DNA of 64,000 bases from a candidate division FCPU426 bacterium (GCA_963840035.1 CAWIXE010000002.1:864001-928000); one strand, 5' to 3'; positions 34,517 to 60,914 are shown, numbered from the stretch's first letter. A program made the numbers and translations. The notes: a model not told the origin generated them from the sequence alone.

Positions 34517-34661
34517 GTAGAGACGGGACCCGTGCCCGTCTCAAGGCAGGACATCCCTGAGACGCCCACAGGTGGCGTCTCTACAGAATTATTTCTTTTT
34601 TGTCCTCGTAGGGGCGATTCAGTTTCTCATGAGCTTGTCGAATGACGAATCGCCCAAACCC
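34517..34661 (+). repeat. Mosaic GTAG-REP cluster related to the 121-bp unit
   Basis: gtagagacgggacccgtgcccgtctc / gagacgccc..ggcgtctctac / gtaggggcgattc..gaatcgccc. Confidence 0.85.
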
Positions 34662-34726
34662 CGGCAATTCAAATAATAATTGGGACCAGCTATTAACCAG
34701 ATGTCAGTACTATTTTCATGACCTTA

Positions 34727-35293
34727 TTAAATTTTACAATAAAACAGCCCCACAAACCCGGACCTAAAAACTTTTGTCCCGGCCAGCTGCAGATTTACAG
34801 GTTTCCCCTGAGTTCCAAATACAGGCAACCCCGACCCCAGCAGTATAGGGTTTACAAAAAGTTTGTACTCATCTATCAGCCCCGCCGCGGTCAGAGTCCT
34901 GGCTGATTCCGCGCTGGCGAGCATCAGTATGTCCTTCCCGGGTTTGTTCTTAAGTTCCCTGATCTGCCCCGCAACATCGCCCCCCACAAACCTGGTAAGC
35001 GCATCCCCGCCTGCCTTCATGGTATTTGAAATCACAACCTTCTCCACCGAGTTATACCATGCCGAGTGCTGCCTGTCATGTTTAGAAGCCTTAGGAGCTT
35101 TCCCCGCGTCGGGCCAGTAAGCCTGCATGATCTCATAAGTCTTCCTGCCGTATAAGGCAGTATCCGAGCGTGAGGTCATTTTAGCCACATAATCAAACAT
35201 CTCCGGATCCACCTTTACCCAGCTGATATCCCTGTCAGCTGTCGCCGAGAACATATCCAGTGAAACATGGATAAATAATATTATTTTTCTCAT
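34727..35293 (-). CDS. Dihydrofolate reductase family (RibD C-terminal) protein
   Basis: MRKII..HVSLD, LYGRKTYE, LIDEY.LFVNPILLGSG. Confidence 0.9.
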   Translation of the reverse strand: MRKIILFIHVSLDMFSATADRDISWVKVDPEMFDYVAKMTSRSDTALYGRKTYEIMQAYWPDAGKAPKASKHDRQHSAWYNSVEKVVISNTMKAGGDALTRFVGGDVAGQIRELKNKPGKDILMLASAESARTLTAAGLIDEYKLFVNPILLGSGLPVFGTQGKPVNLQLAGTKVFRSGFVGLFYCKI

Positions 35294-35705
35294 TTTGCCC
35301 CCCTTTATTATTCACGCATAACAAGCATATCAAAAATCCCGTGAAAAAGCAAAAACGTAAACCAGGGTTGCAGTGTCGATTCGCCGTACTGAGCCTGTCG
35401 AAGGACGAATCGCCCGCCTTCCCCTAAGAGCCTTTATAAAAATACTCCCCGGCACCAATGAGCGTATATTGCTCTAGTAATAAGCCGCAAATTCAAATAT
35501 GAATAACAGAGTTATGAATACAATGTCCTTGCTAATCATCGTCAGCTCCTGAGCTGTATATATTTGTTCCGATAAAGGATACGGATCCGTTTGCGTCCTA
35601 AGTTTCGTTTTTCACCCCGGCCCCATTCCCGCCAAAATCAAACACTCTTTGAGCTTTGAGCCCATTGAGCGTTTGAGCTTCCCCATTACCCACCACTTCC
35701 CGTTC

Positions 35706-36902
35706 CTACAACAAGTCCTCCGGTTTTAACTTCAGAAAATCCTCTATAGGGATTCCGCCCGTACCGGCCAGGTATTTCTTTGCCTTTCCAAACTCATTTG
35801 TAAAAGCCTGCATACCGTCCGCGCCCTGTTTTTTGATGCCGCTTTTTACTTCTATAGCTGCCAGTTTTCCGCCGCCGGAAAGAACAAAATCAACTTCCCT
35901 GCCGCCGGATGCCCAGTAAAAAAGCTCCACACCTGTGCCTTTGACAGCGTTTGCCAGATGCGCGCCCACGCATGATTCTACGGATCTGCCGCGGACTTCA
36001 GGGTCAGCGCTTGCGGTTTTAAGGTCAAGCCCTGATTGCGCAGACAAAAGCCCGTTATTTAATACCTGGAATTTAGGGCTTGATCCCCTCTGTCTGACTT
36101 TCTGGCCGGCGTATTTCTGCAAACCCGTGAGCATACCCGCCCCGGAAAGCAGGTCCAGATAATGCGCGAGCGTGGTTGTATTACCGGCGTCCTGCAGCTG
36201 TCCGAGTATCTTCTGGTATGAAAGTACCTGTCCGGAATATAAGCAGCCAAGCTGAAACAGCCTTCTGAGCAATGCCGGCTTATCCACGCGTGTCATCTGT
36301 AAAATATCACGGGAAATAGCCGGTTCAATTATAGAACCGGTTATGTATTCAGCCCACCTTCGCTGGTCCTTTATCAGCGCGGCCCCGCCGGGATAACCGC
36401 CAAAATATATGAATTCATCAGGGCTGAATCCGAAGGCTTTGGACATTTCCGCGTATGACCAGTGTGTAATATGCACTGTTTCAAAACGGCCTGCCAGGCT
36501 TTCCCCAAGGCCTTTATTTATCAGTATGGGCGAAGACCCAAGCAGCATGAGGTATATTTTTCTGCCGGCAGATGTGTCCTCGTCCCAGAGCCTTTTTACA
36601 GTCTCAGACCAGCCGGGTATTTTCTGTATTTCATCAATAACAAGCAGCGCTTTTCCGGCGCTTTTTGGCGCTTTAAGCCGGGCCGTCTCCCATTGCTGCT
36701 CAATCCAAGAGCGGCTTTTTAAATCAGGCTCATCCGCCACCGAGTACTGAGTTTCCATTTTTAAAGCCCCAAGTACCTGCTTGGCCAGAGTGGTTTTCCC
36801 CACCTGCCGCGGCCCGTATAATGCCTGTATAAACCGCCTTGGCTCCTCAAACCTTTTTACAATAAGTGAAAAATTCGCTCTTTTGAACATAACCGCCTCC
36901 AT
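35706..36902 (-). CDS. AAA+ ATPase (AAA_14 + DUF4143 with EVDF..AIEVK end)
   Basis: GPRQVGKTT, IDEIQK, LGSS, ESLAGRF, GGYP, EVDFV, AIEVKS. Confidence 0.92.
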   Translation of the reverse strand: MEAVMFKRANFSLIVKRFEEPRRFIQALYGPRQVGKTTLAKQVLGALKMETQYSVADEPDLKSRSWIEQQWETARLKAPKSAGKALLVIDEIQKIPGWSETVKRLWDEDTSAGRKIYLMLLGSSPILINKGLGESLAGRFETVHITHWSYAEMSKAFGFSPDEFIYFGGYPGGAALIKDQRRWAEYITGSIIEPAISRDILQMTRVDKPALLRRLFQLGCLYSGQVLSYQKILGQLQDAGNTTTLAHYLDLLSGAGMLTGLQKYAGQKVRQRGSSPKFQVLNNGLLSAQSGLDLKTASADPEVRGRSVESCVGAHLANAVKGTGVELFYWASGGREVDFVLSGGGKLAAIEVKSGIKKQGADGMQAFTNEFGKAKKYLAGTGGIPIEDFLKLKPEDLL

Positions 36903-36904
36903 CT

Positions 36905-36946
36905 TTACTCAACGTCATGAGTAATTTTACTCAATACATTGAGTAA
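36905..36946. promoter_or_regulatory. Tandem palindromic operators TTACTCA-N6-TGAGTAA
   Basis: Two copies 22 bp apart (36905-36924, 36927-36946), next to a TTGACT -35 upstream of the ATPase. Confidence 0.65.
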
Positions 36947-37005
36947 AGTCAAGCCAATTCACAGGGTGTTCCGGGACGCACAGTTTTGAATTTATATTAA
37001 ACACC

Positions 37006-37138
37006 GTAGAGACGGGACCCGTGCCCGTCTCAAGGCAGGTAGTTGTATTTTATTAGTTTGCCTTCGTAGGGGCGATTCACGAATCGCCCAAACCGATGCA
37101 CCCCGTAGAGACGGGACCCGTGCCCGTCTCAAGGCAGG
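37006..37138 (+). repeat. Mosaic GTAG-REP cluster
   Basis: Two gtagagacgggacccgtgcccgtctcaaggcagg copies around gtaggggcgattcacgaatcgccc; abuts the stop codon at 37139. Confidence 0.85.
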
Positions 37139-37876
37139 CTACGGTTTTCTCAAAATATAAAAAACATAATCATAATACTCTGAGTACTTTTCGTATATAT
37201 CAAACTCATCCTTCGTATCCTGTATCAGCTGTAACGCGTCCCCATTCCTGTATTTCTTCGAAAACTCTTCGAGATTTTTTTTAAGAGGCCCATAAAAATC
37301 CACCCACCCCTGCCTGCCAAGCTGAAAATCCGCAACAACCTCATACCCCTGCCGTACAGCAGCCTCTCTATTCGACCCGGCAGTCCCCATGCCGCCGTAA
37401 GCGTTATTCCAGTAACGCACAAGTTCCGCCGGCAGGTCCGGCTTTATGAATACCGCATCAGAAACCACAAGATATCCCCCGCTCTTCAAATATTTTTTCC
37501 ACTCTTTCAGCCCGTTCTCAAACCCCATTATGTATATAGCCCCTTCGCTCCATATGGCGTCAAACTTAACATCCGGTAAATCCAGAGTATTCATATCCCC
37601 CCTGAGAGTCTTCAGCCGCCCCTTAAAACCGGCCGCGGTGGAGGTTTGATACAGGGTATCAAGAAAACCCTGGAACACATCAAGGGCCGTTATAGAAGCG
37701 CTAGTATTTTTCAAAAGCACCATAGTCTGCGCCCCGGTGCCGCAGCCTATGTCGAGAATCTTGCCGTTTGAGGGGATTTTTATATATGACAGGGCTTTCA
37801 GCGTAGCCGCATCAGTCCCCGGCCCCTGCCTGTTAGTGCCTTTAAAAAGTATCTGTATGTAGTCCATGTAATTCAT
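37139..37876 (-). CDS. Class I SAM-dependent methyltransferase
   Basis: RQGPG, LDIGCGTGAQT, FDAIWSEGAIY..GF. Confidence 0.92.
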   Translation of the reverse strand: MNYMDYIQILFKGTNRQGPGTDAATLKALSYIKIPSNGKILDIGCGTGAQTMVLLKNTSASITALDVFQGFLDTLYQTSTAAGFKGRLKTLRGDMNTLDLPDVKFDAIWSEGAIYIMGFENGLKEWKKYLKSGGYLVVSDAVFIKPDLPAELVRYWNNAYGGMGTAGSNREAAVRQGYEVVADFQLGRQGWVDFYGPLKKNLEEFSKKYRNGDALQLIQDTKDEFDIYEKYSEYYDYVFYILRKP

Positions 37877-37902
37877 AAGTTTCCTTTCAGCCGATATGGC
37901 GC

Positions 37903-39000
37903 TTATTTCCGGTATTTCATCAACCCTTTTACAGCGGCCTTTACCGCGTTTATCGCGTCTTCCGCGTCCTTCTTTTTTATTCCTGTCATTTCAGCCGCCT
38001 GCATCATGTGTTTTCCCTCCGGCAGACCCTGGCCTAAAAGCGTTGTAGTGTGCTGCCCGTTAAAACCGGAGCTGTATGTCAGGTCATACGCCGGTGAAAA
38101 CGACCACTTTCCATTGTCGTAAATGAATGAAAAATTCTTGGCATGGTCATCCCTGTTATGCGAGAAGATATTAAACACCATGAGGCGGAATACTTTCACC
38201 ACTTCCCTCATGTCCCCGGTTAATTTCATGGTTGCTTTCATGAGGCCGGTATAGTCGAGCGACGGCGCCCTGAAGTCGGCGTTTAAAAGGCCGGCTGCCG
38301 TGTGCGTGTGCAGTTTCTTCCTTCCGCGCCTGTCAAAGCGCTTTATGGCAAAATACTTCTTTTCCAGCAGCTTTGTCTCCGGCATTATTATTCCGCATTT
38401 TTTTGCGGCCTGCGAGTACTCATACTCCATCACGCCGGAATCAGCCTTATCAGATGAATTCGGAAATTTCACTATCCATGGCTCGCCTTTTATCTGTATC
38501 ATGGCTTTAGGCCTTGCCCCTCCTGAAGACCCGCCTTTTTTCGCGAGTGTCTCCAGGTGCCCCGTGTAGTTTTCATTTAAAACCTTTTTTACCTCTTTAG
38601 CCAGCTCATTTACGCCGGCCCTGACGCTTCCTTTAAAAAAATCATTTTGCGGCCTGTATTCCAGCGCGCCCATGCCGTTTTTGCCCACTATGCTTAAGCG
38701 TTCCACGAGGGAGACTCCCGCGGGGTCTATCCTGTTTTTTAACAGCAGCCTGTCTATTAAGAGCCTTCCCCAGCCGTCCGGCAGGCTGTCGTTAAATATA
38801 CCGAACATACCTGAGTAAGGCTGCGCCGCGGCGGTAAAAACCCCGGCCTGTAGAGGCAGGTGAAACGGGGATATGGAAAAACCCGTTTCAAGAAATGACG
38901 GGTCATATTCAAATACATACGCGTCCGCCCCGGCCGCTCCAAGCCTGCCGGCTTTTTTTCCGTATATGTAAACATCCAGCACCCTTGTTTTTTTAATCAT
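37903..39000 (-). CDS. hipA: HipA-family kinase toxin
   Basis: DSLPDGWG, GALEY, SSGGARPK, KRFDR, NRDDHAKNFSF, SPAYD. Confidence 0.92.
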   Translation of the reverse strand: MIKKTRVLDVYIYGKKAGRLGAAGADAYVFEYDPSFLETGFSISPFHLPLQAGVFTAAAQPYSGMFGIFNDSLPDGWGRLLIDRLLLKNRIDPAGVSLVERLSIVGKNGMGALEYRPQNDFFKGSVRAGVNELAKEVKKVLNENYTGHLETLAKKGGSSGGARPKAMIQIKGEPWIVKFPNSSDKADSGVMEYEYSQAAKKCGIIMPETKLLEKKYFAIKRFDRRGRKKLHTHTAAGLLNADFRAPSLDYTGLMKATMKLTGDMREVVKVFRLMVFNIFSHNRDDHAKNFSFIYDNGKWSFSPAYDLTYSSGFNGQHTTTLLGQGLPEGKHMMQAAEMTGIKKKDAEDAINAVKAAVKGLMKYRK

Positions 39001-39340
39001 TTATACGCCCTCTTTTTCTTTTTTTTGGGTTTTTCTGGCTGACGGCTTCGTCAAAAGAGGCATAGTTTCTGGATGTAAAAAGCAGGTTAAAGCCGTCTGT
39101 GGATTTCAGGGCCATAGCGAGCATAATGATATGTTTTAATGATATCTCCCCCGAGCTTTCAAACCGTTTTAAAGTCCCCATGCTGACCCCGGAGCGGGAA
39201 GCAAGCGCCGCCTGCGTTAAGTTAAGCTCCAGCCGACGCATCCGAACCCGGGAAGCAATCCCCCTGCTTAAATCCGAAGGGCTGAAGTCCGTAAAATCCA
39301 TATTAGTGGATAACATATTATCTTTTATCATATATTTCAC
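38993..39340 (-). CDS. XRE-family HTH antitoxin (HipB-like)
   Basis: LTQAALASRSGVSMGTLKRFE..G; overlaps the hipA start. Confidence 0.88.
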   Translation of the reverse strand: MKYMIKDNMLSTNMDFTDFSPSDLSRGIASRVRMRRLELNLTQAALASRSGVSMGTLKRFESSGEISLKHIIMLAMALKSTDGFNLLFTSRNYASFDEAVSQKNPKKRKRGRIND

Positions 39341-39351
39341 CTCGTACAGAT

Positions 39352-39380: not shown

Positions 39381-39429
39381 GGCGAATATTTGTATTCTGT
39401 ATTCAGGTAAGGTACATTACTTTACTATA

Positions 39430-39762
39430 TTCACGAATCGCCCAACCTATGGCATTCTGTAGAGACGGGACCCGTGCCCGTCTCGCCTTAAACACCGAGA
39501 CGCCCGCGAGGGGCGTCTCTACAGGTTTGTTTGTGTCGTTGTATGGGCGATTCACGAATCGCCAATACCAATAATTTTCGTAGAGACGGGGCTCGTCCCC
39601 GTCTCGCCTTAAACACCGAGACGCCCGCGAGGGGCGTCTCTACAGGTTTGTTTTATTCTTGCCTTCGTAGGGGCGATTCAGTTTCTCATGAGCCTGTCGA
39701 ATGACGAAACGCCCAAACCGTGGCATTCCGTAGAGACGGGACCCGTGCCCGTCTCAAGGCAG
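39430..39762 (+). repeat. GTAG-REP mosaic containing about two 121-bp units
   Basis: Unit starts at 39459 and 39580 (121-bp period), further hairpin at 39730; near-identical to the array at 43798. Confidence 0.9.
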
Positions 39763-39877
39763 CATCTTTAGTTCTAAAATAATAACCACGTTCGTACAGC
39801 ACACCACAATTGTTAATTATTAATTGTTAATTGCCCTTCCAGTTGGATTCATGATTCCGGTCCTGACACCTGTATTT

Positions 39878-40594
39878 CTACGGGAGGCTGTAATATATCG
39901 TGAGTTTCGGCCTTTGCGACGGGACCGCGTAGATGGCTGTGTACATATTCGCGTATGCTCCGCTGGCCTCATCCACAGCCTTCAGGATCAGCCCGTAGTT
40001 TGCCGCTGGCGATGATATCCAGGAACCCACCAGTGACGGGTTTAAGGCAAAGGTCAGTGTGGTAGAGTTGGCTGTTTTTGAGTCCATGGCAGCGCCAAAA
40101 TCCCCTCCAGGGGCAGCCCAAAGCAGCGAGTTCGCGTAGTTCATCCAGTTGGTCTGATTGCTTATCCATGGGGCTGTTACGGGATAAACAGTTATAGTAT
40201 TATCCATGGCGCCGCTTAACGTTATGGTAAGGTACGCTTTGTGTACAATCACGCCCGTAGGGACCACGGCCGAAGACAGGTCAAATTTAATCAGAGAGCG
40301 GTATTTATATCCGCCCGCGCTGCCGAGGGTGACATTATCATTTGTGTAGTATATGGTGTATTCGTATAAGCCCGATATGATGTTGTTGACCGTTGTCCCC
40401 GCATAAGCGTTTGAGGGATACATGCCATCCTGGAAGTTCATGGTGACATAGCCGGCATCGCCCAGAGGCCCCGCAGGCCCTGCCGCGCCCTTGCATGATG
40501 TCAGAACCACCGCGATAAAAAGGAAAACCGGGAGCAGAACCGCTGTTACAAATCTTTTGTTTTTCAAGTTTTTCATAAAACATCTCCTTTTCAA
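39878..40594 (-). CDS. DNRLRE-like domain lipoprotein
   Basis: LTSC lipobox, GPAGP, FQDG..YAG, LIKFDLS, NYGLILK, RPKLTIYY. Confidence 0.8.
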   Translation of the reverse strand: MKRRCFMKNLKNKRFVTAVLLPVFLFIAVVLTSCKGAAGPAGPLGDAGYVTMNFQDGMYPSNAYAGTTVNNIISGLYEYTIYYTNDNVTLGSAGGYKYRSLIKFDLSSAVVPTGVIVHKAYLTITLSGAMDNTITVYPVTAPWISNQTNWMNYANSLLWAAPGGDFGAAMDSKTANSTTLTFALNPSLVGSWISSPAANYGLILKAVDEASGAYANMYTAIYAVPSQRPKLTIYYSLP

Positions 40595-41192
40595 TCAGAT
40601 TTTAATTCCATACGCAGCCATGAAGTTCGGGTACTTAAGTTATCTCCCTATTTCAGTTTTTTTATATCCTTTTTCGGCGGCAGCGCAGTTTTAAAGAGTT
40701 GCCGCGGCGCTGCTGTCAGTCGCGGCCGGAGTTTTGAACATGGTCCCCGAATAAATCCAAAACTGAAAGAACAGATGCCGGTAAAAATAACTTTTCAATC
40801 TGCCGCCTTCTTATATAATATATACACTATTAATTGTATAAAAAATAGACATGAAACAAAAGTACGGATTTCCACTATTTATGGACATATTTCAGCGGGT
40901 ATATATGTGTTTTCGCGGAAGTTTTGAAAAAGCGCGTATACTGATGACCACGCCTTCACACAGCATGCGTTTTATCAGCCTTTAAAACTCTTATACTAAC
41001 GGCAATGAAAATTGGCGTAAGAACCCGATTCATAAACTAAATACTATTGTATAAAAACCATAATCGTTAGATTCATGATTTCGGTTCTGACACCTTTCAC
41101 ATTTTTAAAGTTTTAACCAAATTTCAACCCGAAAACTCAAATACCCCCTTGAGCGTTTGAGCCTCTTGAACCTTGAGCCAAATCCCCCATAA

Positions 41193-42137
41193 CTACCGTC
41201 CCTCCACCCACCCAAAAACTTCCCTGTCCCAGGTCTTTTCATCGTCCTTCATATACGACAGGTGCCCGGCGTCCGGGAAGACCACCATCTTTTTCTCTCC
41301 TGCCAGGTTCTCATATATCTTTTCCCCCTGGCTGACAGATACCCTCTTGTCTTTTCCGCCCTGTAAAAGAAGCGTAGGTATTCTTATATCCTTTGCGTAC
41401 TGCCATGGGTTGTAGTTAAAAGCATTATATCCTTCTATGACACTGCCCCAGAAGACCAGTATTTCGGCAAAGGGCCATGACGGGGCTTTGAGGAGGTCAA
41501 ATCTGCGCCTGACAGTGTCCAAAAGCCCGGCAAATGGACTCTCTATGATTAGACATGATGGTTTAATCCCATAAGCGCTTATAGCCCGCATAGAAGCCGC
41601 GCTGCCCATGGATACCGCGTATATGATTATATTCTTGTACCCGAGCTCTACAGCTTTATCATAAGCCGCCTTCACATCTACAGCCTCATGATACCCCACC
41701 CCGGTGCTATTTCCCCCGGACCCGCCGCTGCCGTAAAAATCAACCAGCATGACCCCGTATCCGCGTGAAAGAAACTTCACAGCCTCGGGTATGAGCTGTG
41801 TTTTACTTTCAGTGTAGCCGTGAAAAAGAAGCAATATCGTATCCTTCTTACTGCCGTTAGCCAGCCAGCATTCCAAAGGTATGCCTTTAAAACCAGGAAA
41901 ATTTAAGACTTCGTATTTAAAAGAGGGTTTTATGGATTTGGATTCAGGTTTGGGGACTGTGACTCCGGTGAAAAGTGCGGTTGCTTTCTGGGTAAATGAA
42001 AGCTGCTCGGGTTTTAAGGGCTTGGGGCCTGATGAGGTGAAGTGGGTCATTTTGTAGGCGTGCATGAAGGCAATTAGGTTTAGAAGGATAAATAGAGTTA
42101 AAAGGGTTATGAGTATTCGTTTAATAGGTTTTTTCAC
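41193..42137 (-). CDS. Membrane-anchored alpha/beta hydrolase
   Basis: FHGY, AVSMG nucleophile elbow, D.RV, AGH. Start moved to GTG 42137 (GGAG RBS); the ORF track gives 42203. Confidence 0.88.
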   Translation of the reverse strand: MKKPIKRILITLLTLFILLNLIAFMHAYKMTHFTSSGPKPLKPEQLSFTQKATALFTGVTVPKPESKSIKPSFKYEVLNFPGFKGIPLECWLANGSKKDTILLLFHGYTESKTQLIPEAVKFLSRGYGVMLVDFYGSGGSGGNSTGVGYHEAVDVKAAYDKAVELGYKNIIIYAVSMGSAASMRAISAYGIKPSCLIIESPFAGLLDTVRRRFDLLKAPSWPFAEILVFWGSVIEGYNAFNYNPWQYAKDIRIPTLLLQGGKDKRVSVSQGEKIYENLAGEKKMVVFPDAGHLSYMKDDEKTWDREVFGWVEGR

Positions 42138-42310
42138 ACAGTCTCCAATTCTATTTATTTCCAATCTCAACTTTCCAGCGAAGCGCGTTATTACCCCATT
42201 CATCCCGAGCCTGTCGAAGGATATGCGCCCGGCTTGTCAGGTATTAAGTCAAGACCTGACCCCAATAATAATTAATTAATTTAATTTCATCCTTCCTTTT
42301 AATATTTGTG

Positions 42311-43144
42311 TTATTTCAAACCGATCTGCTTCCTTTGCAAAGGTAAAAAATTTTCTTTTGATACTACTTTTTTACCTGTTCTTCGTTCAATGTCTCTTCT
42401 TGTTCTGCCCGCAACAGCTCCGCCGTCGGCCGCATCCTTTTTTAGCGGGTTAAATCCTCTGGAATTTCTGTCCTGCGTAATTTTTGTCGTTGTGGCTTCA
42501 GCAAGCATTGTCAGGATCAATTCCAGGTCAGTCATGTGGTCTCTTAAGTTTTCGCGCTGCAAATTTTTTATCTTTTTATATTCAGCCACAGGCAGTTCAA
42601 ACGTTCCCTTCATTATTTCATTGGTCAGTATTGCGTATTCCCGTTCTGTTTCAACGTCTCTTTGCGCCCATTCATCAGTCAGGCTGTGCCTTACTGCTAT
42701 ACCCCTCATCCGCTTATCCACCCAGGATCTCGGGTACCCTTTCTTTTCGTAAAGTTCTTTCATCCTGGACATTGATAATTCAGGGTCCTCGATTTCATCT
42801 ATTCTTTCTTTCCCGACTTTTGCCAGCCATCTTTTTAATGGTTCAACTTTTTTTGATGGAATAGACTGTATAATCCTGAACATCGTTTCGGTATTTGCGC
42901 AGTCTGTTTCGTAATACTTACCATCGGAGGATTGGACTTTCAGTTGTCCGATTTTTTCGGACAACTCGGCATATCCCTCTGTTTTCAGCTTCTTTTTTAA
43001 GTCATTCCAGTATTTACGGGGTCTCTGGCTGTCTGTCAGCACATAAACCACATCTATGATTGAAAACCACCATTCCCCATTATTCATAATTTTTCTGACG
43101 GTTTTACCGTGAAATAGGTCTAACTTTTTGGTTTCTTTTTTCAA
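42311..43144 (-). CDS. Bro-N domain (phage antirepressor-like) protein
   Basis: WWFSIIDV, YWNDLK, RIIQSIPS.K.EP.K.WLA.VG.ERIDEI.DPE, NLRDHMT.LEL. Confidence 0.88.
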   Translation of the reverse strand: MKKETKKLDLFHGKTVRKIMNNGEWWFSIIDVVYVLTDSQRPRKYWNDLKKKLKTEGYAELSEKIGQLKVQSSDGKYYETDCANTETMFRIIQSIPSKKVEPLKRWLAKVGKERIDEIEDPELSMSRMKELYEKKGYPRSWVDKRMRGIAVRHSLTDEWAQRDVETEREYAILTNEIMKGTFELPVAEYKKIKNLQRENLRDHMTDLELILTMLAEATTTKITQDRNSRGFNPLKKDAADGGAVAGRTRRDIERRTGKKVVSKENFLPLQRKQIGLK

Positions 43145-43211
43145 GTAACACCTCGATCCAATATTCTAGTCAGCCTGGACTGGAGCCGCCAAGTGTGTTT
43201 TAATCTAAATA

Positions 43212-43241
43212 AAGTATACGCTTTGTATACTTGTATGTCAA
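43212..43241 (-). promoter_or_regulatory. Sigma70 promoter with overlapping palindrome
   Basis: TTGACA-17-TATACT; aagtatac-N5-gtatactt. Confidence 0.65.
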
Positions 43242-45584: not shown

Positions 45585-45679
45585 AGTATTGCGGCCATGC
45601 CGCAGTTGTAATTAATTACTAAAACCCCGATCCAAATTACCGCCCATCAAACCATAGAAGCGCAGTAAAATCAAATTTA

Positions 45680-45748
45680 TCAACTATTAACTCGCCTTGC
45701 CAGACGGAGCAGTACTATCGCGGAGGCTGGAGGTCTGGTACCATTTTT
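45680..45748 (+). repeat. 69-bp element, copy 2
   Basis: Direct repeat of 43517-43585. Confidence 0.9.
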
Positions 45749-45771
45749 TTAATCCCATTATGCCCGTTAGC

Positions 45772-46695
45772 CTAATAACAATTCATAAAATATAAAGCCG
45801 GTGAATATGAAGTTGTGCTAAGTGTCCCCGGTGACGCCGGCATGTTTATATCAGGGTCTGCGGTAACATCCATATATCGCCCTCCGGCTACCGGGTAATG
45901 AGCATATATCGTACTACTTCCCACAAGTCCGATCCAGTAGTCCCCTGCTAAAAGGACAGTGTCAGGAAATGAGTAATTTGCCCATCCCGCAGTTCCGTTC
46001 TGTAACGCGCTTTGCGCGATTAGCGCGCCCGGTTCGCCGCCGCTGTCGCCATATATGCCGGCCCTTAAATAGCCTCCGGAGCTATAACATTTTGCCGCGT
46101 ATGCGTTGACCGTAATCGTTGAAGAAACAGTGTATTTGAAAAAAACTATATATCCGCCGGCCCATGTCGTGGCAGTGTCGGTAAAATCACCCAGCATGTT
46201 GGTACAGCCGGTGGTCGAAACCGGAGTCAGGGTGCAGGTGGCTGTAGCTGTAACGGTAGCTGTTGGCGTGGTTGTCGGGCTCACAATCGGGTTTCCGGAA
46301 CAGTCCAGTCCGGTAGCACTAAGCCCTGAGCACATCAAGTTACCGGAGACGCACATTAAATTACCGGCGTAACGCTGCCCGTCCTGGCAGTCATAACAGA
46401 CACCTCCGGTGTCTGTCAGGTGGTTGTCTGTTACACCGTCGCAGTCATCGTCTATGCCGTTACAGACTTCGGCGGAAGGTTTTGTATTGCAGCTGCAGTT
46501 TCCAAAAGGATAAGTTGACGGGTCGTCATTTATGCATGTAGTTGTGGGCGTGGCCGTGGAACTGGCCCCGGGCGTAATAGTGGCCGTGTATGTCGCCGCA
46601 TTCTGGTTTGTAGGCGAAGATGGCGCTTTACTTGCGCATTGAGATAAAACAACCAGCGCTGAAAATACAAAGATAACAGCCATAATTTTTCTCAT
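45772..46695 (-). CDS. Lipoprotein with Cys-rich MopE-like metal-binding motif, Thr linkers and beta-sandwich
   Basis: LSQC lipobox; AEVCNGIDDDCDG motif. Confidence 0.8.
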   Translation of the reverse strand: MRKIMAVIFVFSALVVLSQCASKAPSSPTNQNAATYTATITPGASSTATPTTTCINDDPSTYPFGNCSCNTKPSAEVCNGIDDDCDGVTDNHLTDTGGVCYDCQDGQRYAGNLMCVSGNLMCSGLSATGLDCSGNPIVSPTTTPTATVTATATCTLTPVSTTGCTNMLGDFTDTATTWAGGYIVFFKYTVSSTITVNAYAAKCYSSGGYLRAGIYGDSGGEPGALIAQSALQNGTAGWANYSFPDTVLLAGDYWIGLVGSSTIYAHYPVAGGRYMDVTADPDINMPASPGTLSTTSYSPALYFMNCY

Positions 46696-46805
46696 GTAAA
46701 CCGCCTCCGATTATTCCGTGTAATTGTAAACTGATTTATTTATTATATATGATTTTCAGGGCGAGTCAACGCCATAAAATTTGACCCCATCACCTCAACT
46801 TTTTA

Positions 46806-47060
46806 TTACTCATGTCTGTCCCGGTTTTTAACGCTCTTGCCGGAGACGGATTCAAGATACATCCGCTCGACCTTGATTCTTGCCCAGTTATTTTTCCGCA
46901 GAAATTTCAGACTCGAGCTGACGCTCGGATTGGAGAAAAAACAGTTAATCTTTACCCGGCGGTTCATTTCTATCCATCCGAATTTTTCCACGAGATAATT
47001 CAGTATCTGCTCAAGGGTGATGCCATGAAGCGGATTATTAACTTGAGAATCGCCGGCCAT
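46806..47060 (-). CDS. VF530 family (DUF2132) DNA-binding protein
   Basis: NPLHGITLE.I...LV...GW..INCF..NPS..SSLKFLRK..WAR.KVE..YL. Confidence 0.92.
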   Translation of the reverse strand: MAGDSQVNNPLHGITLEQILNYLVEKFGWIEMNRRVKINCFFSNPSVSSSLKFLRKNNWARIKVERMYLESVSGKSVKNRDRHE

Positions 47061-47184
47061 TAAAAACCTCCTGCATCAATGCATTGAAAATTTCGCATAT
47101 TATCATACCAAAGAGTATAACATAAAACCGGCCGGTTACACTAAAGCCTTACACCGGCCCTTGACTTAAGACATGAAACGTCCC

Positions 47185-47263
47185 GGTTCAGACCTTGCTT
47201 ATAGCATTCAAACCATATCCCATTAGTTTGACTTTATCAATGCTCTAAGCAAGGCCTGCCCCC
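47185..47263. repeat. Small inverted-repeat element (CAGnCCTTGC..GCATT / AATGC..GCAAGGnCTG)
   Basis: cagaccttgcttatagcatt ... aatgctctaagcaaggcctg. Confidence 0.65.
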
Positions 47264-47517
47264 GATCCATGCTTAACCATATAATAATCGCGCCCCAGCG
47301 CAATAGACGACAATTGTTAATTCTTAATTGTTAATTGCCTTTTTGCCGTTTCTTTGTCAATTCCGCCCTGCTCTTATTGTATATAGTTTAATCATTTAAA
47401 AAGGTTTTTCCAAAACCCCGCCCCACCCCGTGAAACCAACCGTCTCCCCACCATTGCTTTTCCACGGTTATTATATTATATGTTAACTAAGATGACTTCC
47501 AAACAGGAGGTGCGCTC

Positions 47518-48063
47518 ATGATTATTGGATACTTGTTTCCTGCCGCGATTTATACCTTTTTCTACCTCCAGCACTATAACTTCATCAAAGCTCACCCGCA
47601 CGACCAGGCTGCCATCTGGATGAACATCATTTTAGCCGTAGTACTTGTCATTACAGCCATAGTATTCATTTACGCGGCCATAAAAGAAGCGCTTGATGCC
47701 GCGGATATGGAAAAGGCTGAAAAAGAGTGGCAGGTAAGGCGTGAAAAAGAAGCGGCTGAAAGAGATGAAGCGGCGCGAAAGGACAAGAAACTATGGGAAG
47801 AAAATATGAAAAAACTGCGAGAAGAAAGGTCCAGCAAAATCGAGGAAGAAAAAACAGCCTTCTCAGTCAAGGCATACAACGAAAGATACTACGGAGCCCC
47901 CGGCTACCGTGAAAAGATGTGCCCGGAAGAAATCCTGAAAGCATTTAAATCCACAAACGGCCCCATGCTCCCCGAAATCCCCGGAGAGGTCAGGGTGAAG
48001 ACTGCGGAGTATACCAGGATGGTTAGGGAGACTTGTGATAGGTTGGGTGAAAGGTTTAATTGA
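47518..48063 (+). CDS. Hypothetical protein with two TMs and a coiled coil
   Basis: AGGAGG RBS; hydrophobic N-terminus, E/K-rich helix. Confidence 0.75.
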   Translation: MIIGYLFPAAIYTFFYLQHYNFIKAHPHDQAAIWMNIILAVVLVITAIVFIYAAIKEALDAADMEKAEKEWQVRREKEAAERDEAARKDKKLWEENMKKLREERSSKIEEEKTAFSVKAYNERYYGAPGYREKMCPEEILKAFKSTNGPMLPEIPGEVRVKTAEYTRMVRETCDRLGERFN

Positions 48064-48142
48064 AAATCTTAATTAGAGTCATGAATCAGGCTCTGGAACC
48101 TTGATTCACTCCGGTTATTGCTTCCTGGCGTCCATAATTTTA

Positions 48143-51100
48143 TTAAACATTCAAAAGCGCCTTAAATCTATCCCCATAAACAATCGATTCTCTTAATTGT
48201 TTAAATATTTCCGGATTTTGTCTGGCTATTTCCTTGACCGTCTTTTTTTTGTCTAATTTAACCGCCATCTCAAGCAGCCCCATCGCTTCAGACAAATATG
48301 AATCTTTTGATATTTTAGGATTTTTTCGCGCTATAAAGCAAAGAGTCCTGGCCTTTCCGTAAAGCGCGTCAGGATAGTCATGCCTTATTTCTATTGCGGC
48401 TGAATACGCTTTAAGGGCTTCATTATCCCTGTAAAGCTGGCCCAAAAGGAATCCGGACTCCTTAAAAGCCTCCGCATAATTGGGTTTTAAGCGGATGGCC
48501 TCCTCATATTCCTTTAATGCGTCGCCTCTTTTTTCTTTGCCAAATTTCGTAAGTATATAGCCTCTTGTATAGTGTGCAAACGCGTTATTGGCGAGCACAT
48601 CTTTTGCGCCATCTATTACTTCAAGAGCCCTGCCAAAATCGCCTAAATTCGCTAAAATTGCCGCGTGTTCGCATATCGCGTCAGGCATTGCAGGATTCAG
48701 TTCAAGCGCTTTTTTAATAATATCAAGGGCAAGTTCATGTTTTGAATCAGTGGTATATGCCCTGGCAAGCTGGCAATACGACATGATATTTGACGGGTCC
48801 AGGTCTATGGCCTTTTTATAGTCACTTATGGCGTCATTTAAGCGGCCTTTTGTGCGGATCACAGTTTTTGCCCTATTGACGTATAATTCTGCCTCAAAAG
48901 GATACAAATATATCATGGTGTTAAATTCTTTTTCAGCGTCCGCTAATTTGCCGTTACGCGCAAGTGAAATCGCCCGCATGAAGCGCCTGAAGTCAACCTG
49001 ATATCCGAGGCTAACAGCTTTATTCCAGTCGTTTTTCGCCGCCTCTTCATGGCCCGAACCCAGTTCATGGTAAATTTCAGACCTGAATGCGTATAACTCC
49101 GCGAAATCAGGGTTTAACTTGATGGCTTTATCAATTTCACTTATTGCTTCTTTGAGTCTTGAAAGCTTTACCAGCGCAATGCTTTTTAAATGGTAATAGC
49201 TTGGTTTCTTCCCATTTATTAAAATTGCCTTGTCATACTCGGCAACAGCCTTCTCATAATCATTCATTTTAGCGTATACTATTCCTTTATTGGAATAAGC
49301 TCCGTCATATTTTCTTCGTATTACTATCGCCTTATCGAACGCCTGCAGAGCCGTGTCATAATACCCCTGCTGTGAAAGCGCCATACCAAGCCTCAAATAC
49401 GCGTACGCGTTGTTGGAATCATATTCCAGGGCGTTGTTTAATGCTGTAATAGCATCCGGCAGCCGCCTCATTAGGCCCAGGATTATTGCTTTATTTACGT
49501 ACGCATCTGAAAACTCCGGCCGTAAAGCCAGCGCGTTTTCAACCGCGGTGAGCGCTTCAGGAAAATCACCTTTGCGCCCAAGTATATAACAGCGGTTATT
49601 CCAAGCGTCGGCAAATTCCGGATTTAACTCTATTGCTTTTGAGTTTTCTTCTAGGGCTTTTTCTATCTGGTCCGAACGGGCGTAATTATATCCAAGCCCA
49701 TAATGAGCGTATGCGTTATCGGGATTAATTTTCAGGATTAACTCAAATAAGCGCTGTGAACGCTCAAAGTCTATCTGGTGCGAATAATACCGGCTCAGAT
49801 ATTCGAGCCCTTCCTGATCAAGCGATTTTTCCATGGATTGTGCTGTCTTTTCAAACCGGTCGTCCTCAGATAACAGGTCTTCCGGGTATTTTACGATTTT
49901 GATTAAAAATCCCGGGTGAGGTTTTACTTTTCCTTCTGATAAAGGCTCAAGCATGAAGTATCGTTTTTCAAGTTCACACAGGTCTTTTTCCAGGCTTACC
50001 CTGTCAGAGCCGCAGCCAAAAACATTTTCTAAAATATGCTGTATTCGGACAACAGCCTGCGGTATGCCGACGGAATCCAGCAGTTTCATAGCCTGAAGCA
50101 GCCGTTTGCCGTGCGGATCAAGGTTTTCATATTGTGCCGTCATATTTTCGTACTGCAAATACTGAGTTATGTCGCCGGGCAGCGGATAGTTGCGCTCCTG
50201 GGTTTCATCCCATTCTAACCCGACTTTTTTCGATAATTCTTCACGCTGCGAAACGGTCATAGGGACAAGCCTGTATTTTTGCAGATAATCTTCGCAGAAA
50301 CGGACGACTGTATTGCCTGCACTTTCCAGAAGCAGAGAATAATTCGCCCCTTTACGGCAGGTTGCGGCTACAGCATAATTCCCGCCCGTAGCTTCACCAG
50401 TCAATTTGGCAAATGAGATAATATCGTAATTCTCACGCGCCAACTGATCTATATCATCCAGCAGTATTATAACCTTTCTATTCTTTAAAAATGAAAAAGC
50501 ATTTCTGTCCGGCACCGGTTTTTTTGCGGCCGGGGAAATAACCACATAATCCTTTAAACCTATAAGTATATTCAGCATGGCAAGTGTTTTTCCGGCATTA
50601 AATGTATCTACCATCAGCAATCCGCGGCCGCCGCCTTCCCGCAGCTTCTTCCTGAGTGCTTTTTCTGTAAACTTACGGCCTTCGTCCGCTTCCGGATCAT
50701 AATCGCTTTTATCCCATACAAACTCTCTATGTATATAAGATTTTTCAAAAAACGGCCTTGTCCCGTCTTTAAAGTCCTTTTTTTCACCCGATTTTACTTT
50801 TTCAAATCTCAGGTCAGCAAGAGTTAGTTCATTAGTATTTTTGCAAAGCGCAAAAGACTCAATACGGCGCATCGTTTTAAGCCTTAATTTATTTATTATA
50901 AAACCGGATAACCAAATGATAAAATTTAAAGTAATAAAAACCATAATGGACGACATTATTACAGGATGCCTGTTTGCGAATTCAACTATCGCCACAGACG
51001 CGGGGTCCCTGTTAAGAAAACTTATAACGATGCTGATAATTAGCGCAAGTAATGACAAAGAATTAAAAACTATAAACGCTATGGATTTAGACATCAAAGT

Positions 51101-51157
51101 GACAAAATCTTCAATAAACAAGATCAGTTTTTTCATTAACATTGTACCCCACAACAA
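48143..51157 (-). CDS. 2TM + P-loop NTPase-like domain + TPR array
   Basis: Two TMs; DTFNAGKT (atypical Walker A), IILLDDID (Walker B), AATCR; over 12 TPR-like repeats. Confidence 0.8.
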   Translation of the reverse strand: MLWGTMLMKKLILFIEDFVTLMSKSIAFIVFNSLSLLALIISIVISFLNRDPASVAIVEFANRHPVIMSSIMVFITLNFIIWLSGFIINKLRLKTMRRIESFALCKNTNELTLADLRFEKVKSGEKKDFKDGTRPFFEKSYIHREFVWDKSDYDPEADEGRKFTEKALRKKLREGGGRGLLMVDTFNAGKTLAMLNILIGLKDYVVISPAAKKPVPDRNAFSFLKNRKVIILLDDIDQLARENYDIISFAKLTGEATGGNYAVAATCRKGANYSLLLESAGNTVVRFCEDYLQKYRLVPMTVSQREELSKKVGLEWDETQERNYPLPGDITQYLQYENMTAQYENLDPHGKRLLQAMKLLDSVGIPQAVVRIQHILENVFGCGSDRVSLEKDLCELEKRYFMLEPLSEGKVKPHPGFLIKIVKYPEDLLSEDDRFEKTAQSMEKSLDQEGLEYLSRYYSHQIDFERSQRLFELILKINPDNAYAHYGLGYNYARSDQIEKALEENSKAIELNPEFADAWNNRCYILGRKGDFPEALTAVENALALRPEFSDAYVNKAIILGLMRRLPDAITALNNALEYDSNNAYAYLRLGMALSQQGYYDTALQAFDKAIVIRRKYDGAYSNKGIVYAKMNDYEKAVAEYDKAILINGKKPSYYHLKSIALVKLSRLKEAISEIDKAIKLNPDFAELYAFRSEIYHELGSGHEEAAKNDWNKAVSLGYQVDFRRFMRAISLARNGKLADAEKEFNTMIYLYPFEAELYVNRAKTVIRTKGRLNDAISDYKKAIDLDPSNIMSYCQLARAYTTDSKHELALDIIKKALELNPAMPDAICEHAAILANLGDFGRALEVIDGAKDVLANNAFAHYTRGYILTKFGKEKRGDALKEYEEAIRLKPNYAEAFKESGFLLGQLYRDNEALKAYSAAIEIRHDYPDALYGKARTLCFIARKNPKISKDSYLSEAMGLLEMAVKLDKKKTVKEIARQNPEIFKQLRESIVYGDRFKALLNV

Positions 51158-51206
51158 TTTTATATGAATAGATTATATCTTTTATGGCTCCCTATCATAA
51201 GTAATT

Positions 51207-51296
51207 GTACCAGACCCCGAGTTAATAAACAACTTTATTAACATTCAACAGCCCCTTCTATTATCAACTATTAACTCGAGGTCTGGTATCATTTTT
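51207..51296. repeat. Inverted pair of the 'empty' form of the 69-bp element
   Basis: gtaccagaccccgagttaata (51207-51227) versus tattaactcgaggtctggtat (51269-51289). Confidence 0.75.
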
Positions 51297-51330
51297 TGTA
51301 TTTGATTAGCCTTTAAATATTTGAACAGAC

Positions 51331-52806
51331 CTACTGACCCTGCCTCTTCAACCACCCCATAACTTCCCACGTAGCTTGCAAATCCTCTTCATTATACACT
51401 AAAATCGTCTTCATAAGTTCTTCCCGTTTTAAAGAATCCTTCGTCTCCATAGCCTTTATGTACTGCGCCATGGACCAAGACCCTCCATACTCTTCCTGCG
51501 ACCGCTTAAATCCCGCCAACTTCTCTAAGACCTTCAAAGAGTAACTCGGCGCAGCCAAAATCACCGATGTCCTTGCCTCCGGGTACAGGTCGAAAAGATT
51601 GGATTTCACCCTCTCCGCTATGGCTATGTCGTCGCCGTATCTTGATAAGTACAAGTCGAGTTTGGTTTTTTCGTAGCTGGAGTAGTGGACGAAAGGTATG
51701 TCTCCGTATTCGTCCAGTATGGCCTTGCTAAGCCGCAGGAACTCCAGCCACCCCTGTTTATCCCCCTCAGAGCCCATAGGAGCCACCGCAGGCGTGTATG
51801 TGGATGGTTTTGCGCCGTATACCTTCAACCCCCACAGATAGACGGTATCTATCTCATCCAGGTAAGGCGGCATGCCTTCGAGGTCGAACATTACGTAGTT
51901 GTTAAAAAAAGGTATCTTGATAGGCTGAACCCACATATGCTCCCCGCTCTTCAAAGCCCGCGCCTGGTCAAATATCCGATAAGCCCGAACCCCCACTTTC
52001 ACCATCTGCTCCCCGCGCGCCTTTTTTAAAGCCTTCAAACTGGATACATCATAGTTATCCAGCAGTTCATCCACAGTATTTATCCCGACATCCCGAAGAG
52101 CGAAAGCCGTACCCTTATCTACATCAGATAGCACAGCCACATTCATCCCATCCATAGCCGCCTTCCAGCACCCATCCCCAAACCCACACCCATTACACCT
52201 GGTCCACCCCACAGGCATATAAGGCTCCGCACCAAGCGTCTTTATATGTAATATTTTCCCCACCTCCGCCTCAGCGCTCCCCCCGCCATCATAACCAAAC
52301 TCCAGCACTGCCCCAGTCCCGCTAACCACCTGCAACCCCGCAGGCAGAGTGCCTGTGGCTTTCTGAAAAAGATACCCATAAAACTGCAACTGCTTCACCA
52401 CTTCCGTATGATGTTCCACTTCATCCACCTTCCGCGCCATCTTGGCATCGCGGATGATGTAGGAGCTGCCTGAGAGGATGAGAAAATCCGGGTTGCCGAA
52501 TATGGAGTGTTTGATACCGCTGATCGTGATTTCAGCCTGAAAGGCGGGCTGATAGATGATAGAAGTTTTAGAAGCCATAAACTTTTTTGTTTGAGTTATC
52601 TTTTCTTCCATAGTCATAGCTGATAAGTCAACATGCGGGCCTATGGATTTCAGGTGGTCGAGTTCGTGGCGTTTGCCTAGGTCGAAGAGGACTTCCTGGT
52701 ATGGGTCGAGGGGTTTTTCGGGGGTTTGGAGGGAGCGGAGGAAGAGGCGCTTCGCGCACTCTTCGGGGATGTATAGGTCGTAAATGTTGGGTGCCGATAT
52801 ATTCAT
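51331..52806 (-). CDS. TM0106 family RecB-like nuclease (PD-(D/E)xK + RNase H-like domain)
   Basis: GNPDFL..RDAK..QLQFY; C...CxxCxxxxxC; FDLEG, HYSSYE, SYSLK, YNEED. Confidence 0.88.
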   Translation of the reverse strand: MNISAPNIYDLYIPEECAKRLFLRSLQTPEKPLDPYQEVLFDLGKRHELDHLKSIGPHVDLSAMTMEEKITQTKKFMASKTSIIYQPAFQAEITISGIKHSIFGNPDFLILSGSSYIIRDAKMARKVDEVEHHTEVVKQLQFYGYLFQKATGTLPAGLQVVSGTGAVLEFGYDGGGSAEAEVGKILHIKTLGAEPYMPVGWTRCNGCGFGDGCWKAAMDGMNVAVLSDVDKGTAFALRDVGINTVDELLDNYDVSSLKALKKARGEQMVKVGVRAYRIFDQARALKSGEHMWVQPIKIPFFNNYVMFDLEGMPPYLDEIDTVYLWGLKVYGAKPSTYTPAVAPMGSEGDKQGWLEFLRLSKAILDEYGDIPFVHYSSYEKTKLDLYLSRYGDDIAIAERVKSNLFDLYPEARTSVILAAPSYSLKVLEKLAGFKRSQEEYGGSWSMAQYIKAMETKDSLKREELMKTILVYNEEDLQATWEVMGWLKRQGQ

Positions 52807-52849
52807 TATGTCTCCTTAAAGTAGATTCATACTTCCGGTCTCTGTAATA

Positions 52850-53938
52850 TTATTTGTACTTGATTCTTGGATGTGGTAACCTACCTTTTGTTATTCGTGA
52901 ATAATATTGCGAATAATTTACAAGTTCCAAATCACGAATTAAAGGCACTTTCCCTTGATCTCTCAACATCTTTGCTTTATCGACTTCAAAACAAAAACTA
53001 AGTCCTAAATCAATACTTAGACACTTTTGCTCAATTCCAACACAACATCCGTTTTCAGTTATTACAGAATAACCACCAAGACTTTTCACCCGTTTACTCT
53101 TTTTTTCTATCAATCTAATATATTCTTCTTTAATATGTCCATTGAAATATATTTGGTTGTTAGCATTTAAAAACTGCAAGACGTTAAGTTGATCAACATC
53201 ATTTTGTTCCTTAATAACCACAATATCAGAATTTTTTTTGCCCACATTGTAAACTTTTGAATCATAAAGCATTATTGCTCTTGTCGGCGAAATCGGCAAA
53301 AACATTTGAAGTCCGGGAGTTTGAAATCCGGCATTGCCCGATGGAGAATTGTAGTTCTCAAGAAATTGATTATACCTAACGACCGGATGATCGGAAGTAA
53401 TAAAACATTTAGGCGTTTTATTGACCAATATCTTTAACTTAAGATCAAATATTTGTACCGCCGAAGTAAGCATAAAATTCATGTAATCTTTTGCCGGTTC
53501 ATCTGAACGCAATTCGTAATCATTACAGAACTGTATATATTGCAATTCAGTAAAACCTAGTAGACCTTTTATATATTTCTTGAAATATTCATCGAGCAAT
53601 CTTTCGTGATCGTTTACAGCTTTTAAAGTACGAGTTGTAAGTGTAAAAATATAGCATAGAAAATAACCATATTCTTCCGTATCGAAACTGATAACAGTAT
53701 TATTTTCAAATTGTTCAATAACTTTGCCAGCTTGACTTTCAAGCTTAGCCAACATTTTCTCAACATGCGAATCTTTACCATAAAAATAATCTTCATAAGC
53801 CTGATTATTCAGATCGGCTTCAGCAATAATTTTATTTGTTTTTTTTATATAAGTTCCAATGTGTGCTTTCCCCGCAGTAACAGCAAACATTCTAAGATGG
53901 GATTTATTAACATAATGCTGTTTTTTATTTTTGGGCAT
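52850..53938 (-). CDS. DUF4238 domain protein
   Basis: KQHYV...L..F, FITSDHPV, FLPISP. Confidence 0.85.
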   Translation of the reverse strand: MPKNKKQHYVNKSHLRMFAVTAGKAHIGTYIKKTNKIIAEADLNNQAYEDYFYGKDSHVEKMLAKLESQAGKVIEQFENNTVISFDTEEYGYFLCYIFTLTTRTLKAVNDHERLLDEYFKKYIKGLLGFTELQYIQFCNDYELRSDEPAKDYMNFMLTSAVQIFDLKLKILVNKTPKCFITSDHPVVRYNQFLENYNSPSGNAGFQTPGLQMFLPISPTRAIMLYDSKVYNVGKKNSDIVVIKEQNDVDQLNVLQFLNANNQIYFNGHIKEEYIRLIEKKSKRVKSLGGYSVITENGCCVGIEQKCLSIDLGLSFCFEVDKAKMLRDQGKVPLIRDLELVNYSQYYSRITKGRLPHPRIKYK

Positions 53939-54295
53939 ACTTTATTTTCCTGATAAGTCTATAATCAAACGTTTTTTTGAAGGAAAAATACACAAAACAA
54001 CAGGTATTATAATCAAAATAAAGGATCTGCTTTTCAACATAAATGTATCCTATCTCTTTGATGCATCTTTTGATTTACCTTTTTTCACGTTTTCGTCATC
54101 ATTTCCTTATATGACATGCTTCTGAGCGTCTTTCAATAACTGCACAAATTTGTATCTGAGCTATTCTTCGCCATTGTACAAAGCTACATTTTGTTATCTT
54201 AATCGTTTATTTTTTTAAAATAGAATCATGAATCAGGATCTGACACATTCTATTCTTCTATTCCCTCCTCTAATTTTAAAATTAATAAAAACCAA

Positions 54296-60904: not shown

Positions 60905-60914
60905 TTTTTCACTC

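Follow-up and report, generated by a model that had tools for sequence, protein, structure and literature searches.

We analysed a stretch of 64,000 nucleotides, hereafter the window (G000:C2:864001-928000), from a candidate division FCPU426 bacterium whose genome (G000) comprises 3.46 Mb in three contigs. Between 34.5 and 54 kb of the window (positions without a contig name count from its first letter), genes of unrelated accessory types are separated by short repeats. An earlier note on this DNA had sorted these repeats into GTAG-footed repetitive extragenic palindromes (REPs), or set (a), and a motif family, set (b), and had proposed that both are junctions where genes are gained and lost. 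Judging from their sequences, the set-(b) motifs are the ends of TIRYT/TIRtron elements, i.e. elements with an HUH Y1 transposase, of several families. Such ends are confined to accessory islands, where they form two arms with tips facing inward around an AT-rich centre, and cargo is swapped at their tips in relatives. We consider it likely, though with some reserve, that these ends are the points where a transposase made elsewhere joins incoming genes, and that the island grows from its middle.

Transposon ends between accessory genes

All eight set-(b) copies of the earlier note lie on the plus strand where it had placed them and, as it remarked, mostly just beyond stop codons: six of the eight tips are 8-49 nt past the stop of the next minus-strand gene, one is 99 nt past it, and one has no adjoining gene. 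They do not make up one motif family. At least three families (b1, b3 and b4; the labels b1-b9 are our own names for end families) have only the tip in common, and the copies at 41070 and 51280 are not single motifs but halves of two-ended miniature elements of 81-85 bp. When the genome was scanned with a matrix trained on four copies that all lie outside the window, 17 sites scored above 20 bits, as against none after reversal of the sequence; the ends at 39870, 41094, 48100 and 54247 were among those recovered. We assign set (b) to TIRYT ends because intact HUH transposase genes, here or in related genomes, are enclosed by matching pairs of such motifs.

The genome encodes eight Y1_Tnp genes, none of them inside the window. 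As the earlier note had anticipated, some are flanked by such repeats: a b1 inverted pair surrounds the TIRYT at G000:C3:278k, and a b5 inverted pair flanks another TIRYT at G000:C2:584k. Three of the genes encode 321-332 aa and have their HUH and YxxxNP motifs intact (3/3). These long genes match PF01797 above its cut-off and NF047646 at 74, 86 and 67 bits, against a cut-off of 80; all three have a weak C-terminal match to Bac_DnaA_C (E 7e-5 to 3e-3, below the curated cut-off in every case). Among relatives, the b1 and b3 variants of the window recur at the TIRYTs of G007 and G002, with 24-25/27 and 25/30 identities. The third TIRYT of this genome (G000:C3:318.3-322.5k, L021) has no inverted ends at its flanks; it stands between two hairpin repeats of 45 bp whose loops are oriented alike, and further copies of these lie at C1:906k, 911k, 1028k and 1105-1106k and at C3:322k. 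The earlier note had named REP-associated tyrosine transposases (RAYTs) as the enzyme. Its choice of the HUH Y1 class holds, as such genes exist elsewhere in the genome, but the candidate belongs to the TIRYT subclass with a DnaA-like helix-turn-helix (HTH) tail and is not a RAYT of GTAG REPs. In a PDB search, E. coli TnpA-REP (4ER8) was the sole match (E 0.007).

Pattern scans returned two loci in genomes and four in metagenomes, two of the latter repeating known loci and thus not independent, and the b1 pattern had no match in viral contigs; among 72,556 plasmid records there was one partial TIRYT match at E 1e-30. At the site of G002:C81 (L101) that matches the surroundings of the intact b1 TIRYT at G000:C3:278k (L022), an AT-rich gene stands instead, at the tip of a b8 end.

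Solo b1 ends lie on the minus strand at 39844..39870, 48074..48100 and 54221..54247. The tip of the first (39870) is 8 nt past the stop of gene 39878-40594, and this end is identical at 24/27 nt to the right end of the intact G007 TIRYT and at 22/27 to that of the TIRYT at G000:C3:278k. The second has its tip 43 nt past the stop of a TPR gene, and the third, innermost in the left arm, shares 25/27 nt with the right end of this genome's intact TIRYT. A decayed b1 end, which the earlier note had missed, is followed by a promoter-like -35/-10 pair (43715..43741, minus strand). Family b3 provides two solo minus-strand ends with a 38-nt insert, 43514..43585 and 45677..45748, which are 97% identical, the latter with its tip 30 nt past the stop of gene 45772-46695; a weak, decayed b3 end (43264..43293, minus strand) scores 16.7 bits, the best null match scoring 15.8. 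The solo TIRYT-type b4 end at 42244..42263 (minus strand) has a tip that fits the published GGGGWSAS consensus exactly; a decayed b4 end (44822..44841, minus strand, 18 bits) had also been missed, and two-ended b4 elements occur in G012 and G022.

The miniature TIRtrons comprise a b1 element of 81 bp (41014..41094), with its centre-facing end (41068-41094) well kept and its outward end at 41014 decayed, a b8 element of 82 bp (47183..47264, z -6.9), and a b3 element of 85 bp (51206..51290) whose right end is identical at 25/30 nt to that of the intact G002 TIRYT. The b8 element and a counter-oriented solo end at 47148 were absent from the earlier list. Compared with shuffled sequences, solo b1 and b3 ends have no stronger fold (z -0.8 and 0.4). 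The GGGGWSAS consensus fits b4 at 8/8 positions, b1 at 7/8 and b3 at 5/8, and does not fit b5; according to the available passages of PMC3733652, only some TIRs (terminal inverted repeats) carry this motif (here and below, published work is cited from such excerpts). Set (b) was also considered as GTAG REP and rejected, because it does not combine a GTAG foot with a stable hairpin. As for other mobile elements, an IS30-family element splits a b1 end at G000:C1:742054-743280 (L017), whose separated minus-strand parts at C1:742-743k we counted once, and a second one, at G000:C2:940191-941512 (L013), is about 250 bp away from a b1 end; this placement looks as though b1 ends attract IS30.

Two arms facing a common centre

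Ends occupy 18/26 gaps in the 48-kb island at C2:903-951k, versus 0/30 between 1 and 39 kb of the window and 51/1766 genome-wide. The outer tips of the solo ends point right inside the window, and point left from 63764 on, for about 20 kb beyond it. The common orientation described in the earlier note is thus found in the run up to 54247 but not further: the ends from 63764 on are opposite, as are the partner ends at 41014 and 51206 and the solo end at 47148. Overall, 20/21 solo ends fit a single tips-inward flip (permutation p 2e-4, for copies that are not independent), the sole exception being a decayed b5 end that faces away from the centre (47148..47175, plus strand). The integron-like single polarity proposed earlier is only half of a two-armed, tips-inward layout.

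The centre (54248..63763, minus strand) spans 9.5 kb at a GC of 0.314, is bounded by tips on both sides, and encodes a 306-aa protein of unknown type, a type III restriction enzyme with its methyltransferase, and a UvrD-PD-(D/E)XK helicase-nuclease. To its right, the innermost end is of family b5 (63764..63791, plus strand), and this arm, in which 13 solo ends face the centre, runs on past the window as far as about G000:C2:947-949 kb. To its left, the cargo (39878..53938, minus strand) includes a Disaggr-repeat protein, an alpha/beta hydrolase, a Bro-N protein (PADLOC PDC-S13), two unknowns, VF530, one plus-strand gene, a TPR protein, a TM0106-family RecB-like nuclease and a DUF4238 protein. 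The VF530 gene (DUF2132, 46809-47060) is small and scrap-like, yet spans its whole profile. A word resembling a ribosome site stands 12-43 nt from a tip in several genes of the right arm, and in the left arm stop codons face the tips; the cargo is therefore tightly trimmed on its tip side.

The layout is not peculiar to this locus. Tips-inward flips also occur at G000:C1:218-226k, C1:743-748k, C1:1157-1166k and C2:582.9-583.8k, i.e. on both replichores, and every multi-end island that we saw with solo ends on both sides is tips-inward, be it in this genome (C2:903-951k, C1:211-229k, C1:742-750k) or in relatives (G002:C14, G007:C26). At G002:C14, in another genus, the right arm was seen first, beside an AT-rich block; opposite-facing ends were predicted on the left of the block and four were then found. 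Five or more end families interleave in one island. Among the 20 3-kb genome windows with a GC under 0.37, 13 fall in the two largest flips, and GC rises outward from the centres of both (Spearman 0.68 over 47 bins and 0.72 over 18 bins, the bins being autocorrelated). We also considered nested matched pairs, with genes split across the centre. This was rejected: the 5' part of the one DUF2075 scrap described below is absent from the genome, Pfam and tblastn scans gave no split partner, and end families are not mirrored.

Could the common orientation of the ends simply follow the replication strand, or be due to chance? The GC-skew maximum and a dif-like site at C2:776.5k come about 85 kb before the window, which is situated on one replichore. 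Genome-wide, a simple gene caller places 2424/2719 genes on the leading strand, which is the minus strand at the window, so that co-oriented genes are the norm here. IS200/IS605 insertion sequence (IS) enzymes, moreover, prefer the lagging-strand template (10.1101/279083). Yet the orientation flips inside one replichore, between 54247 and 63764, and keeps the same tips-inward sense on the other. Flips on both replichores rule out strand bias, while chance is at odds with motifs so far above the null (17 sites versus none). We give this explanation practically no credence.

Breakpoints and footprints at the tips

If the ends are sites of gene exchange, breakpoints between related genomes should fall at their tips. 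The genes rpoN and hpf, adjacent in 7/7 family relatives, are 9.5 kb apart in this genome, where they are separated among others by an 8.9-kb Rhs block that lies between two b5 tips; the stop codon of the last frame touches the tip. This insert (L018:5490-14416) contains four Rhs-repeat genes and small AT-rich partner frames. We also compared three species of genus g9 at five locus pairs, which gave 31 block boundaries, of which 4 were dropped as small collinear gaps and 27 kept. Boundaries in or near arrays number 17/27, and 10 of these 17 are within 40 nt of a tip, versus 3.7 expected (p about 7e-4). In this genus, the cargo next to one and the same end differs from 6 nt beyond its tip onward, a 1.5-kb unit runs from tip to tip, and one unit of cargo plus end is found at different loci in two species. 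Several breakpoints lie 6-18 nt outside a tip that only one of the two genomes has, where there is no shared homology. In other relatives, cargo lies between facing tips (G007:C26, G012:C6, G022:C41, G023:C79), and homologues of the island's HipA, Bro-N, RhuM/Fic and Nmad3 genes adjoin such ends in other genera. The proposal that the motifs are junctions of gene gain and loss is thus supported for set (b), by its confinement to islands and by cargo swaps at tips in same-genus pairs of relatives, but not for set (a).

Tips also bear small footprints. Short duplications spanning or repeating tips are found in G000, G001 and G002. At C1:906-911k an end unit of about 180 nt is duplicated around a 4.8-kb module, from 7 nt outside the tip (one mismatch, aligned by eye); a 15-bp tandem duplication spans a b5 tip at L018:5476-5505 (G000:C1:1157.5k); G001 has a 47-bp tandem duplication of an end (L042), and tips are repeated in L033 and L061. 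Within the window, a scrap of a DUF2075/SLFN-g3 helicase gene (43361..43516, minus strand, profile positions about 264-319) is cut at the inner edge of a b3 end, and the genome lacks the remainder of this gene. Beside it, 28 nt at 43587..43614 (plus strand) exactly copy 36213-36240, inside an AAA/DUF4143 gene, and begin 7 nt outside the b3 tip core at 43579. The gene scraps reported earlier between the motifs come down to this one clear scrap and the 28-nt copy; the other 9/11 intergenic frames scanned have no Pfam match or are whole small genes.

Set (a) is different. The GTAG mosaics at 34517, 37006, about 39430-39757 and 43798-44750 are present as described, but they are not co-oriented, as each except that at 37006 has hairpins in both orientations. 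That at 34517..34659 has an inverted hairpin pair with other small repeats, ordinary REP/BIME (bacterial interspersed mosaic element) DNA; those at 37006..37135 (plus strand) and 39428..39757 are similarly GTAG REP mosaics, and 43798..44750 is a BIME-like tandem array of eight 121-bp GTAG units, the first seven of which are 0-3 nt from the second unit. Their units have a GTAG foot on a hairpin and occur as inverted pairs or clusters, and both hairpin families flank a 173-aa RAYT at G000:C1:7047-7568. Set (a) is ordinary GTAG REP DNA, and shows no difference from the REPs, BIMEs or REPINs and RAYTs of the literature (excerpts of PMC3733652 and 10.1101/279083) in its GTAG foot, hairpin, inverted pairs, tandem arrays and short RAYT with flanking units. 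The earlier note implied that GTAG REPs and their RAYTs make the junctions. In favour of this, four of the 22 loci of the GTAG family it named lie within these 10 kb, a local clustering (7 of the 22 are leading and 15 lagging), cognate RAYTs exist in the genome, and in genus g9 a REP mosaic is found at the far edge of one variable block. Yet the 267 loci that remain after merging the matches of eight GTAG patterns are spread over the genome in its entirety and occur in both orientations, and in relatives a GTAG hairpin lies within 40 nt of only 2/27 block boundaries, versus 1.5 expected. This origin of the junctions is very unlikely, and GTAG REPs would rather be bystanders spread by short RAYTs.

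REPs are the sole separators of the accessory genes outside the TIR array (34727..39340, minus strand), which encode RibD_C, AAA_14/DUF4143 (PDC-S01), a methyltransferase, and HipA with an HTH partner. Next to them is the GH5 gene at 31389-34307, whose homologues in G012, G022 and G002 adjoin end arrays at core positions that differ; it may itself be old cargo. Many other repeat families are present in the genome. One consists of AT-rich repeats of 7-base units between genes (13947-13971, 39779-39833, 43303-43357, 47283-47337). Two CxxCxxCC-family paralogues, 2.8 kb apart at 26153-26587 and 28965-29393, share 73% DNA identity over 300 nt. Rfam gave no match between 33000 and 64000. Elsewhere, at G000:C3:15002-15552, the catalytic domain of a Xer-type tyrosine recombinase is matched as two pieces in different frames.

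A possible route of gene capture and its known parallels

How might such an island arise? Single-strand nicking and strand transfer are established for the HUH/Y core of this family (10.1101/279083). A TIRYT would bind an end, probably through its DnaA-like HTH, and nick single-stranded DNA at the tip or a few bases outside it. Through strand transfer and copying, new DNA could then end up flanked by the tips of two copies of an end, or of miniature elements, in direct repeat. Units running from tip to tip, made of cargo and one end, may later be excised and re-inserted at other tips, with partner ends being stripped and one-sided runs left behind. New DNA would enter at the innermost tips, and older, more ameliorated modules would lie further out. 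We infer that TIRYTs act on these ends in trans and that growth is centre-first; a role of the enzyme in joining the cargo is plausible. Put more broadly, and as a tentative generalisation, TIRYTs might run a hitherto undescribed form of gene capture free of integrases, acting in trans on minimal ends, loading foreign DNA, often defence genes, between inward tips, and reshuffling cassettes from tip to tip, so that islands grow from the centre and record the order of acquisition outward in both directions.

A number of observations weigh against this account. This genome encodes no TIRYT cognate to families b3, b4 or b8, and for b4 and b8 we saw no flanked transposase gene in this genome or in the relatives examined. 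The literature searched held no biochemical study of any TIRYT, and no function assigned to subclass 2.1, to which we return below. Right-arm ends belong mostly to one family, so that the polarity p of 2e-4 overstates the case; the innermost pair is unmatched (b1 versus b5); and the 1.2 kb on the tip side is more AT-rich for only 34/56 ends (p 0.14). One-sided arrays occur at G012:C2, G012:C15 and G002:C10; their most AT-rich genes are found at the tip-facing end or close to it. The comparative breakpoints all come from other loci, and this locus is not syntenic in the nearest genera; for example, the best relatives of its RluA gene (74-75% identity) are in other genera, with different neighbours. 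Among the ten tip-near boundaries of genus g9, two are the edges of one gutted element and two are one event, which leaves about seven independent events, and shared end sequence can draw the edges of BLAST blocks towards tips. Another ten boundaries fall outside the array spans and away from any tip, which means that gene turnover also proceeds without these ends.

These points bear on the alternative that the ends are passive relics, with TIRtrons and miniatures piling up in tolerant accessory DNA while host recombination, homologous or aided by homology, swaps cargo through ends of 30-220 bp without any transposase. It would account for the many decayed ends, for the three families without a local enzyme and for the 10/27 boundaries outside arrays, and it too predicts breakpoints in or beside shared ends; geometry alone puts tips on both sides of the DNA between any two neighbouring elements. 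But several breakpoints are 6-18 nt outside a tip in only one genome, where there is no shared homology, duplications begin at tips, and decay leaves unexplained why outward-facing partners are lost and why the flip matches the most AT-rich DNA. We regard passive accumulation as unlikely, though as an explanation to be taken seriously. A different possibility is that the arms are two independent one-sided integron-like arrays, each growing at one end, that stand back to back around an unrelated defence island. The left arm is made of b1, b3 and b4 and the right mostly of b5, and one-sided arrays do exist in G012 and G002, yet chance fusion should also yield tips-outward islands, and all islands with solo ends on both sides are tips-inward. 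We find this improbable, and it departs from capture at inward-facing tips only in whether both arms act together.

Gene capture at TIRYT ends recalls integrons and CALINs (clusters of attC sites lacking integrases) in having about one site per module, tight trimming beside start or stop codons, and tip-to-tip units. It differs in having two opposed arms instead of one, and we found no integron integrase or attC-like site: all four PF00589 matches of the genome, which are pieces of the catalytic domain, score higher as Xer-type than as IntI, and a simple consensus scan, run without a positive control, gave no attC-like site in C2:897-951k. Nor do Xer/pdif modules fit, as the four dif-like matches of the genome are all outside the island. 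IS26 has a DDE transposase, and full-length copies of it stand between genes. In outline, clusters and pseudo-compound transposons of the IS26 family (excerpts of PMC7885326) are alike, with cargo between direct element copies and arrays built beside existing ends, but here the enzyme is of the HUH class, the spacers are solo ends or miniatures of 80-220 bp, and the polarity turns round at the centre. Among the island proteins scanned there was no IS6-family DDE transposase, IS30 being the sole IS found. IS91 and ISCR elements mobilise DNA by a one-ended process, with oriIS and terIS and a different transposase family. They resemble our case as HUH enzymes tied to the movement of neighbouring genes (excerpts of PMC13181058 and PMC13393415), while here a Y1_Tnp is associated with inverted ends; no IS91-family transposase was present among the island proteins scanned.

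The closest parallels are with the element itself. TIRtrons and TIRYTs were defined by Di Nocera, De Gregorio and Rocco in 2013 (PMC3733652) and TnpA-Y1 subclass 2.1 by Quentin et al. in 2018 (10.1101/279083), where it is the second-largest group of these HUH proteins, in 14.9% of strains. RAYT group 1, among the most IS-like of RAYT groups (10.1101/119735), is equated with subclass 2.1 in 10.1101/2020.03.09.984088. By sequence, the set-(b) elements match the definitions of TIRtron/TIRYT and subclass 2.1, as far as the available passages give them, and published TIR lists may include our families. These descriptions share with our elements an HUH/Y1 gene of about 320-335 aa, a C-terminal DnaA-like HTH and flanking terminal inverted repeats, modest repeat families found as singles, dimers and clusters and, for some of our families, tips that fit or resemble GGGGWSAS. 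Their available passages mention no link to cargo junctions, polar arrays, tips-inward flip around AT-rich DNA or mechanism. Subclass 2.1 TnpA-REP genes were also seen with prochlorosin clusters, the same enzyme subclass being interspersed with a variable gene set, for which diversifying recombination was proposed (excerpts of 10.1101/2020.03.09.984088). That case concerns one gene family, and its authors later reported strong evidence neither for nor against causation, whereas here the cargo is unrelated and breakpoints map to the ends. Hence, the element is known, while polar arrays of TIRYT ends at cargo junctions, and the tips-inward layout, had no prior report in the literature searched, which missed most subscription journals. 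The layout bears on how defence islands gain genes without an integrase. It provides a defined substrate, a cut position predicted to lie within about 20 nt of the tip, and an expected order of module ages, and the role of the enzyme is therefore directly testable.

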